Shown: in pieces, positions 1 through 2,944 of the stretch
Position numbering within the stretch: position 1 is the first letter of the stretch
Layout: the number at the start of each line of letters is the position of its first letter
Virus record (IMG/VR): IMGVR_UViG_2879742664_000006
Length of the DNA stretch: 33,145 bases
Source: a virus
Taxonomy: Duplodnaviria; Heunggongvirae; Uroviricota; Caudoviricetes
Strand: one strand, 5' to 3'
Program-made: the position numbers and the translations under genes
The notes under the pieces: generated by a model
Seen by the model: only the letters and a program-made list of their open reading frames with translations
Databases searched by the model: none
Told to the model about the DNA's origin: nothing

Positions 1-55
1 GTGAACCGCCCCGGGAATCCTGGAGACTAAACTCCCTGAGAAAGAGGTAAACAGG

Positions 56-382
56 ATGACTAAAAATACTCGTTTTTCCCCCGAAGTCCGTCAGAGGGCG
101 ATTCGTATGGTTCTGGAAAGTCAGGGCGAATATGACTCACAGTGGGCGGCAATTTGTTCCATTGCCCCAAAGATTGGCTGTACACCGGAGACTCTGCGTG
201 TCTGGGTACGCCAGCATGAGCGGGATACCGGAGGCGGTGATGGCGGGCTCACCACCGCTGAACGTCAGCGTCTGAAAGAGCTGGAACGTGAAAATCGTGA
301 ACTGCGCCGCAGTAACGATATCCTTCGCCAGGCTTCCGCTTATTTTGCGAAGGCGGAGTTCGACCGCCTCTGGAAAAAGTGA
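56..382 (+). CDS. IS3-family transposase OrfA (HTH DNA-binding subunit)
   Basis: 108-aa [29 protein letters not shown]... with leucine-zipper-like C-terminus ([18 protein letters not shown]), typical of IS3-family OrfA. Confidence 0.9.
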
Positions 383-1269
383 TGCCACTGCTGGATAAGC
401 TGCGTAAGCTGTACGGGGTCGGACCGGTATGCAGTGAACTACATATTGCCCCGTCAACGTATTACCACTGTCAGCAACAGCGACATCATCCTGATAAACG
501 CAGTGCCCGTGCGCAGCGCGATGACTGGCTGAAGAAAGAGATACTGCGCGTATACGATGGGAATCATCAGGTATACGGTGTGCGTAAAGTCTGGCGTCAG
601 TTGTTACGGGAAGGTATCAGAGTGGCCAGATGCACTGTGGCACGTCTCATGGCGGTTATGGGACTTGCCGGTGTTCTCCGGGGTAAAAAGGTCCGTACGA
701 CCATCAGCCGGAAAGCCGTTGCCGCAGGCGACCGCGTAAACCGTCAGTTCGTGGCAGAACGACCTGACCAGCTGTGGGTGGCTGATTTTACTTACGTCAG
801 CACATGGCAGGGCTTCGTCTATGTGGCGTTCATTATTGATGTGTTTGCCGGATACATCGTGGGGTGGCGGGTCTCATCGTCCATGGAAACGACATTCGTG
901 CTGGATGCTCTGGAGCAGGCGTTATGGGCCCGTCGACCGTCCGGCACGGTCCATCACAGTGATAAAGGTTCTCAGTATGTATCGCTGGCCTACACACAGC
1001 GGCTTAAGGAAGCCGGATTACTGGCATCAACAGGAAGTACAGGCGACTCGTATGACAACGCGATGGCGGAGAGCATCAATGGTCTTTACAAAGCGGAGGT
1101 AATACACCGTAAGAGCTGGAAAAACCGTGCAGAAGTGGAACTGGCCACACTCACGTGGGTGGACTGGTATAATAATCGACGATTGCTGGAAAGGCTGGGC
1201 CACATCCCTCCGGCAGAAGCAGAAAAAGCTTATTATGCTTCCATCGGAAACGATGATCTGGCAGCCTGA
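379..1269 (+). CDS. IS3-family transposase OrfB (DDE catalytic domain), normally made as an OrfAB fusion by -1 frameshifting
   Basis: 296-aa ORF overlapping the orfA stop in the -1 frame; integrase-core-like residues (WVADFTY... HSDKGSQY... [15 protein letters not shown]). Confidence 0.9.
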
Positions 1270-1311
1270 GTTCACAGATAAAACACTCTCCAGGAAACCC
1301 GGGGCGGTTCA

Positions 1312-1430
1312 TGCTGAACGTGCGGCCCGTGACTCATTGACCAGAGCAATCCGAAGTCTGTATGACGTGGCTTTTTACGCTGATGATCTGGATGCACTTA
1401 ACGAACTTTCCGAGCTGATCTGTGCCGCAG
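1312..1430 (+). pseudogene. 3' remnant of an unidentified gene trapped between the IS629 end and an IS2 end
   Basis: Open frame ...AERAARDSLTRAIRSLYDVAFYADDLDALNELSELICAAVD runs from the IS629 boundary into the IS2 terminal repeat; no start codon of its own. Confidence 0.3.
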
Positions 1431-1695
1431 TGGATTTGCCCCTATATTTCCAGACATCTGTTATCACTTAACCCATTACAAGCCCGCTGCCGCAGATATT
1501 CCCGTGGCGAGTGATAACCCAGCGCACTATGCGGATGCCATTCGTTATAATGCTCGAACGCCTCTGCAAGGTTCTTTGCTGCCGTTAACCCGTCTGGTTT
1601 GGGCATGATACTGATGTAGTCACGCTTTATCGTTTTCACGAAGCTCTCTGCTATTCCGTTACTCTCCGGACTCCGCACCGCCGTGTTCTTCGGTT
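1431..1695 (-). mobile_element. IS2 right-end fragment (terminal repeat plus 3' end of insD), truncated by IS911
   Basis: Near-identical (1 mismatch seen) to the right end of the complete IS2 at 31416-31680; minus-strand ORF 1442..1768 encodes the InsD C-terminus ([25 protein letters not shown]...). Homology stops abruptly at 1695/1696 where the IS911 repeat begins. Confidence 0.8.
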
Positions 1696-1767
1696 TGAAG
1701 TGGCACACTGAATTTGGCCACCTGAACAGAGGTGATATGCTCACCTCAGAACAACACAGGTGCTCCA

Positions 1768-2070
1768 ATGAAAAAAAGAAATTTTAGCGCAGAGTTTAAA
1801 CGCGAATCCGCTCAACTGGTTGTTGACCAGAAATACACGGTGGCAGATGCCGCCAAAGCTATGGATGTTGGCCTTTCCACAATGACAAGATGGGTCAAAC
1901 AACTGCGTGATGAGCGTCAGGGCAAAACACCAAAAGCCTCTCCGATAACACCAGAACAAATCGAAATACGTAAGCTGAGGAAAAAGCTACAACGCATTGA
2001 AATGGAGAATGAAATATTAAAAAAGGCTACCGCGCTCTTGATGTCAGACTCCCTGAACAGTTCTCGATAA
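1768..2070 (+). CDS. IS911 transposase OrfA
   Basis: [49 protein letters not shown]..., 100 aa; true start is the internal Met of track ORF 1732..2070. Confidence 0.9.
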
Positions 2071-2096
2071 TCGGGAAACTCAGAGCGCATTATCCT

Positions 2097-2936
2097 GTGG
2101 TCACACTCTGCCAAGTGTTCGGGGTTCATCGCAGCAGCTACAGATACTGGAAAAACCGTCCTGAAAAACCAGACGGCAGACGGGCTGTATTACGCAGTCA
2201 GGTACTTGAGCTACATGGCATCAGCCATGGTTCGGCCGGAGCAAGAAGCATCGCCACAATGGCAACCCGGAGAGGCTACCAGATGGGACGCTGGCTTGCT
2301 GGCAGGCTCATGAAAGAGCTGGGGCTGGTCAGCTGTCAGCAGCCGACTCACCGGTATAAACGTGGTGGTCATGAACATGTTGCTATCCCTAACTACCTTG
2401 AAAGGCAGTTCGCCGTGACCGAGCCAAATCAGGTGTGGTGCGGTGATGTGACCTGTATCTGGACGGGTAAGCGCTGGGCGTACCTCGCCGTTGTTCTCGA
2501 CCTGTTCGCAATAAAACCAGTGGGCTGGGCCATGTCGTTCTCGCCGGACAGCAGGCTCACCATGAAAGCGCTGGAAATGGCATGGGAAACCCGTGGTAAG
2601 CCCGGCGGGGTGATGTTCCACAGCGATCAGGGCAGTCATTATACGAGCAGGCAGTTCCGGCAGTTATTGTGGCGATACCAGATCAGACAGAGTATGAGCC
2701 GGCGCGGAAACTGCTGGGATAACAGCCCAATGGAACGCTTCTTCAGGAGTCTGAAGAACGAATGGATGCCGGTGGTGGGTTACGTAAGCTTCAGCGAGGC
2801 AGCTCACGCCATAACGGACTATATCGTTGGATATTACAGCGCACTAAAACCGCACGAATATAACGGTGGGTTACCCCCAAACGAATCGGAAAATCGATAC
2901 TGGAAAAACTCTAACTCGGTGGCCAGTTTTTGTTGA
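2097..2936 (+). CDS. IS911 transposase OrfB (DDE domain; fused to OrfA by -1 frameshift)
   Basis: 279-aa ORF in the -1 frame relative to orfA with integrase-core-like residues ([10 protein letters not shown]... [10 protein letters not shown]... [15 protein letters not shown]). Confidence 0.9.
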
Positions 2937-2944
2937 CCACTTCA

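Follow-up and report, generated by a model that had tools for sequence, protein, structure and literature searches.

Insertion sequences bounding serial deletions in the early arm of a P2-like prophage of Shigella

The window analyzed here, a stretch of 33,145 nucleotides from an IMG/VR virus record, has a left end crowded with insertion sequences (ISs). A preliminary description had reported IS629, one end of IS2 and IS911 packed into 2.9 kb, and all of these elements were recovered with the same coordinates. The outermost is a full-length IS629 of the IS3 family (1310 bp, 2..1311, plus strand). Its length, its TG...CA terminal inverted repeats (25 nt, 92% complementary in a repeat search of the window), its two overlapping open reading frames (ORFs), its DDE orfB and its -1 frameshift signal are those of IS629. 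Both orfA (56-382, 108 aa) and orfB (379-1269, 296 aa) are open on the plus strand and match the IS3 transposase model NF033516, and an ALIL frameshift pseudoknot (RF01497) lies inside the element at 337-453, scoring 116 bits. The IS629 copy of an E. coli S51 locus aligns exactly from 2 to 1311, with 98.8% identity end to end. No 3-4 bp target duplication accompanies the window copy. Its left flank, known from S. flexneri CCH060 (L002), reads ...CATCATG and consists of the final 139 nt of the prophage integrase gene; its right flank is TGCTGAACG, so that ATG on the left faces TGC on the right. A missing duplication is a trait of the insertion event and not of the element, and hence a signal of rearrangement. 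Judging from these flanks, IS629 is itself a deletion scar, one visible only upstream of the window.

IS629 is followed by a 119-bp piece (1312..1430, plus strand) of a DUF4754-family early gene of a P2-like prophage. It had been taken for an orphan gene tail, which is wrong. The piece corresponds to nt 78-196 of the 243 nt in the DUF4754 gene and possesses neither a start nor a stop codon; it is an internal fragment, the remainder between two deletions. It is 100% identical to 17469-17587 of the prophage in E. coli 19AR1724 (L006) and to 6648-6766 of a second reference prophage (L001), and the matching gene is present in about 1280 E. coli genomes.

The next 265 bp (1431..1695, minus strand) are the IRR end of an IS2. 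They start precisely at the terminus of the element, code for the final 86 residues of TnpB and are cut by IS911. With one terminal repeat in place of the two that bound the about 1331 bp of IS2, this stub is a fragment. A full-length copy (31416..32745, minus strand) sits in the ogr late-activator gene, flanked by a 4-bp target duplication, CCGT; the usual IS2 duplication is 5 bp. This second copy had been called intact. Both of its ends are present, but it measures 1330 bp and a 1-bp deletion near 32020 splits orfB, which becomes continuous when one base is added there. With orfB frameshifted, the ogr copy is non-autonomous. When 1431-1695 is aligned with 31416-31680, 264 of the 265 positions are identical and homology stops exactly at 1695/1696, in agreement with the earlier placement of IS911 inside IS2. 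The two IS2 sequences form a direct repeat with a spacing of 29,985 bp; the suggestion that same-orientation IS2 repeats bracket the structural genes is thus borne out by this alignment and by the repeat search. Recombination between them could in principle delete the remaining 30 kb, structural genes included.

IS911, another member of the IS3 family, occupies 1696..2944 on the plus strand at its full length of 1249 bp, which is also the commonest length among 54 copies in IMG/VR contigs. It displays what is expected of an IS911: about 1250 bp with imperfect inverted repeats starting TGAAGTGG, orfA and orfB, an A6G slippery site and a DDE transposase. The orfA frame (1768-2070, plus strand, 100 aa) is open, the orfB frame is open from the A6G site (2019 to 2936), and both match NF033516. 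An IS911 of E. coli S51, interrupted by other ISs, aligns exactly to 1696 and 2944. Since independent copies of IS911 and of IS629 end at identical bases, the boundaries of the two elements are not a matter of judgement. The S51 locus (L007, NZ_CP015995.1 1908016-1913000) is another nested pile-up in its own right, where IS911 has entered IS2 at another position and has in turn been split by an IS30 carrying an IS629.

The sequences on either side of IS911 are ...CGGTT in IS2 and AACCG... in parM, and a direct duplication of any length is therefore impossible. IS911 normally generates 3 bp (sometimes 4 bp) of duplicated target, and none is present here. The contrast of gtt with aac had been noticed in the preliminary description and is confirmed by the flanks and by intact reference prophages. 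Recalculated boundaries, which had been proposed as a way to expose a hidden duplication, yield none, and the S51 copy has the same ends. Such a lack is common among IS911 copies: of the 54 distinct full-length copies in IMG/VR prophage contigs, 38 have no duplication, and other copies in these contigs carry duplications of 3 bp (12 copies) or 4 bp (3 copies). The same IS911 flank is also found combined with different partner flanks in different genomes.

A strong target consensus was sought among 86 left and 140 right distinct IS911 flanks and gave a weak bias (T at -6, G at -4, T at -2), to which both flanks in the window conform. The 10 nt outside each IS911 end (1686-1695 and 2945-2954) were also seen to be inverted complements at 8 of 10 positions, the five nearest the tips among them, a level that random pairs of real IS911 flanks reach about once in 1000. 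Both flanks are native sequence, as comparison with intact prophages shows. The complementarity is a post hoc observation and probably a coincidence. That the sites are non-random, with one IS911 end guided to a site resembling the other flank in a sequence-directed, intramolecular adjacent deletion, is decidedly improbable.

To the right of IS911 lies the 3' part of a parM-like gene (2945..3550, plus strand), which runs from codon 119 to the stop codon. Codons 1-118 are absent by comparison with an intact prophage. Of the two domains of ParM/StbA, the last 32 positions of the StbA_N model and the whole C-terminal domain model remain, and with its N-terminal codons gone the gene is a remnant. 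Its partner gene, of the Plasmid_stab_B family (3555..3866, plus strand), is intact and marks the return of colinearity with intact prophages. Beyond it are an ead/Ea22-like gene and then the portal and terminase genes. A promoter scan of positions 1-4000 found none.

The window prophage is P2-like (Peduovirus-type). Colinearity was assessed over int, C, cox, the early genes, A, portal, terminase, scaffold, capsid, the tail genes and ogr; the parts that remain are colinear with prophages annotated in E. coli, and the early arm is deleted. The prophage lies between btuC and ihfA, and its host genome is that of a clade-1 Shigella of the S. flexneri serotype 6 type. S. flexneri CCH060 (ST145) is identical to the window over 1-2944 and differs by two indels across 13.5 kb; to the left of its IS629 are btuC, two small ORFs and the last 139 nt of the integrase gene. 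Four public contigs, among them those of CCH060 and two S. flexneri serotype 6 isolates, encode a ParM truncated in this way.

Intact prophages occupy the same btuC-ihfA site in E. coli 19AR1724 and SE11 (L201). They share the integration site and the integrase with the window prophage and are 96-100% identical to it in the retained parts. Intact prophages have the order int, repressor (C), cox-like gene, DUF4761, a small ORF, DUF4754, several small genes, A, parM and portal, with terminase following portal; parM and its partner gene lie between A and portal in 19AR1724 and are not found there in SE11. The second reference, L001, is located at another chromosomal site and has the same gene order. 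These genomes supply the unrearranged arrangement for which a comparison with relatives had been suggested. They also correct the view that the pile-up lies next to the prophage: intact prophages carry early genes at this position, so the pile-up is inside the prophage and replaces its early region. Unlike the copies in 19AR1724 and SE11, the window copy is without the int-to-DUF4754 and DUF4754-to-parM intervals, contains four complete or partial ISs, and its portal and capsid genes are frameshifted. The portal frameshift is a 10-bp deletion near about 5927 and that of the major capsid gene a 1-bp deletion near about 8981, both relative to 19AR1724.

Several other features of the retained arm were observed. 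A tail-fiber segment (17475-20187) has 30-nt inverted repeats at its bounds and an adjoining resolvase-type invertase gene (20220-20837), and has the opposite orientation in E. coli 19AR1724, a difference expected of a host-range switch. Three tandem 132-nt repeats at 16742-17137, with 100%, 87% and 61% identity to the reference copy, sit in a 661-aa ORF (16215-18200) that is the positional counterpart of the reference tail-fiber gene. Between a gpD-like gene (26796-27716) and ogr, a 1039-aa ORF (27965-31084, plus strand) fills the slot that holds variable cargo in P2-like phages and that in the reference prophage encodes GapS6a and a 930-aa hypothetical protein; searches of Pfam and PADLOC returned no match for the 1039-aa ORF.

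Alignment with 19AR1724 places the two breakpoints precisely. At the left one, int position 15157 (L006 coordinates) is followed by IS629 and then by DUF4754 from 17469, so that 2311 bp are missing. This interval contained most of int (839 of its 978 nt) and the 5' end of DUF4754, with the repressor, the cox-like gene, DUF4761 and a single small ORF between them. At the right one, DUF4754 position 17587 is followed by the IS2 stub and IS911 and then by parM from 22043 (codon 119). Here 4455 bp of prophage are missing relative to 19AR1724 and 5234 bp relative to L001, a size that depends on the reference. The lost genes are six small ones and replication gene A, together with the 3' end of DUF4754 at one edge and parM codons 1-118 at the other. 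IS2 also lacks 1066 bp of its own sequence at this scar. Because IS629 and IS911 are without duplications and stand in for intervals present in intact prophages, both are deletion scars. The earlier proposal that adjacent deletion or recombination removed the remainder of IS2 and the 5' end of parM is upheld in substance, but the loss is far larger than envisaged, with 4455 bp of prophage (relative to 19AR1724) gone, gene A included.

The order of events can be partly read from relatives. An IMG/VR contig (L202) has the same DUF4754-IS2 junction together with a complete int, uninterrupted sequence from btuD to nt 196 of DUF4754 and no IS629. Since this contig combines the junction with an intact left arm, the IS2 insertion preceded the IS629-bounded deletion, which is specific to its lineage. 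Insertion of IS2 into the DUF4754 gene at nt 196 was therefore an early event, common to this relative. The IS911-bounded deletion followed the IS2 insertion and took 1066 bp of IS2 and about 4.5 kb of prophage, and the later IS629-bounded deletion removed 2.3 kb in this lineage only. The IS911-parM junction is found in seven independent contigs from different projects, including a diverged lineage (L010/L011, 99.2-99.3% identity), a distribution which argues that the IS911-bounded deletion is old and shared.

The diverged sister lineage has rearrangements of its own. In L011 (286-305), the right end of IS629 abuts IS911 nt 709 (window 2404), and by comparison with window 8428-11809, L010/L011 have lost 3.4 kb of head genes between direct repeats of 10 bp, CAGGGTGAAG. 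The junctions are fixed across several isolates, with no isolate-to-isolate heterogeneity among the assemblies compared. Three 90-bp queries spanning the DUF4754-IS2, IS2-IS911 and IS911-parM junctions gave no contiguous match in 5426 complete E. coli genomes. A search of the same genomes with the whole 4.6-kb left end found the arrangement in none, IS matches having swamped the result. The IS911-parM junction was not found in species-representative genomes, nor the int-IS629 junction in viral contigs.

Taken together, the locus is the scarred early arm of a P2-like prophage that underwent serial IS-bounded deletions, probably by recombination between two IS copies. The most likely origin of each duplication-less IS is a two-step one. 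First, another copy of that IS would insert at a distance of a few kb, oriented like the resident one. Homologous recombination between the pair would then delete the DNA separating them, and one hybrid copy would stay behind with one flank from each insertion. Two-copy recombination is favored because 38 of the 54 IS911 copies lack a duplication and because identical flanks recur with different partners. The intermediates it would leave were sought as exact patterns, and the searches were empty for a full IS2 at the DUF4754 site (viral contigs), for IS911 in parM with an AAC duplication (viral contigs and metagenomes) and for IS911 in IS2 with a GTT duplication (viral contigs and genomes).

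Transposase-mediated adjacent deletion offers a one-step route that is rather less probable. A lone IS911 already present in either IS2 or parM, and likewise a lone IS629 in either int or DUF4754, would attack a nearby target on its own DNA molecule, for example through a tandem-dimer or circle-junction intermediate. The stretch in between would be deleted and the IS left next to a new flank, with no duplication. Deletions of various lengths beside IS3-family elements have been reported (Kanai et al., 2022; PMC8860574), the reading frames and frameshift signals of IS629 and IS911 are intact, and the losses, at 2.3 kb and about 5.5 kb, are short. Both flanks of IS911 agree with one weak half-site bias, and 3 bp (TCA) are common to the reference and the IS629 tip at the right junction, although sharing of this length arises by chance 1 time in 64. 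The junction of IS629 with IS911 in L011, known from the right end of IS629, could fit a further, creeping deletion. Above all, the end product is the same as that of two-copy recombination and so favors neither; with identical products and empty searches for intermediates, the two routes are inseparable here.

Other accounts of the locus fare much worse. Repeated ISs are a classic cause of mis-joins and the unique segments between them are short (119 bp and 265 bp), which would suit an assembly artefact with collapsed or mis-joined copies. Against this, the independent CCH060 assembly is identical over all five junctions, the IS911-parM junction recurs in seven contigs from different projects and the DUF4754-IS2 junction recurs in L202, leaving an artefact very improbable. 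Simple insertions with mis-called boundaries can practically be dismissed: the ends of independent IS911 and IS629 copies are identical, no shift of the boundaries yields a direct repeat, and 2311 bp and 4455 bp are missing relative to intact references.

Recombination between two IS copies thus remains the preferred reading, and the phenomenon is an already known one, ordinary IS-driven prophage decay. That IS copies without duplications mark recombination or deletion is textbook knowledge. The experimental 'insertion-deletion-excision' of IS3 likewise leaves the IS in place, with adjoining DNA lost and no duplication (Kanai et al., 2022; PMC8860574). That work was plasmid-based, whereas the mechanism proposed here is deduced from the products, which two-copy recombination is equally able to generate. 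In Shigella, IS expansion, with IS2 and IS911 among the five commonly expanded elements, accompanies gene loss and genome degradation (Hawkey et al., 2020; PMC7373316). The present locus resembles that genome reduction in its elements (IS2 and IS911), in the inactivation or deletion of genes at ISs and in its lineage-specific arrangements. Neither prophages nor the serotype 6 clade were analyzed in that study (the word "prophage" is absent from its text); here, by contrast, a P2-like prophage was hit and the order of events is partly reconstructed from relatives.

The consequences for the prophage follow from its gene content. It is without a repressor gene and a replication gene, its integrase is reduced to the last 139 nt in CCH060, its ogr is interrupted by IS2 and its portal and capsid genes are frameshifted; on these grounds, it has probably lost the ability to excise, to replicate and to form particles. 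The prophage is in all likelihood a dead remnant, and the importance of the finding is slight beyond annotation, where IS copies that lack target duplications are to be read as deletion scars. For Shigella itself, the DUF4754-IS2 and IS911-parM junctions could serve as markers of clade-1 lineages.
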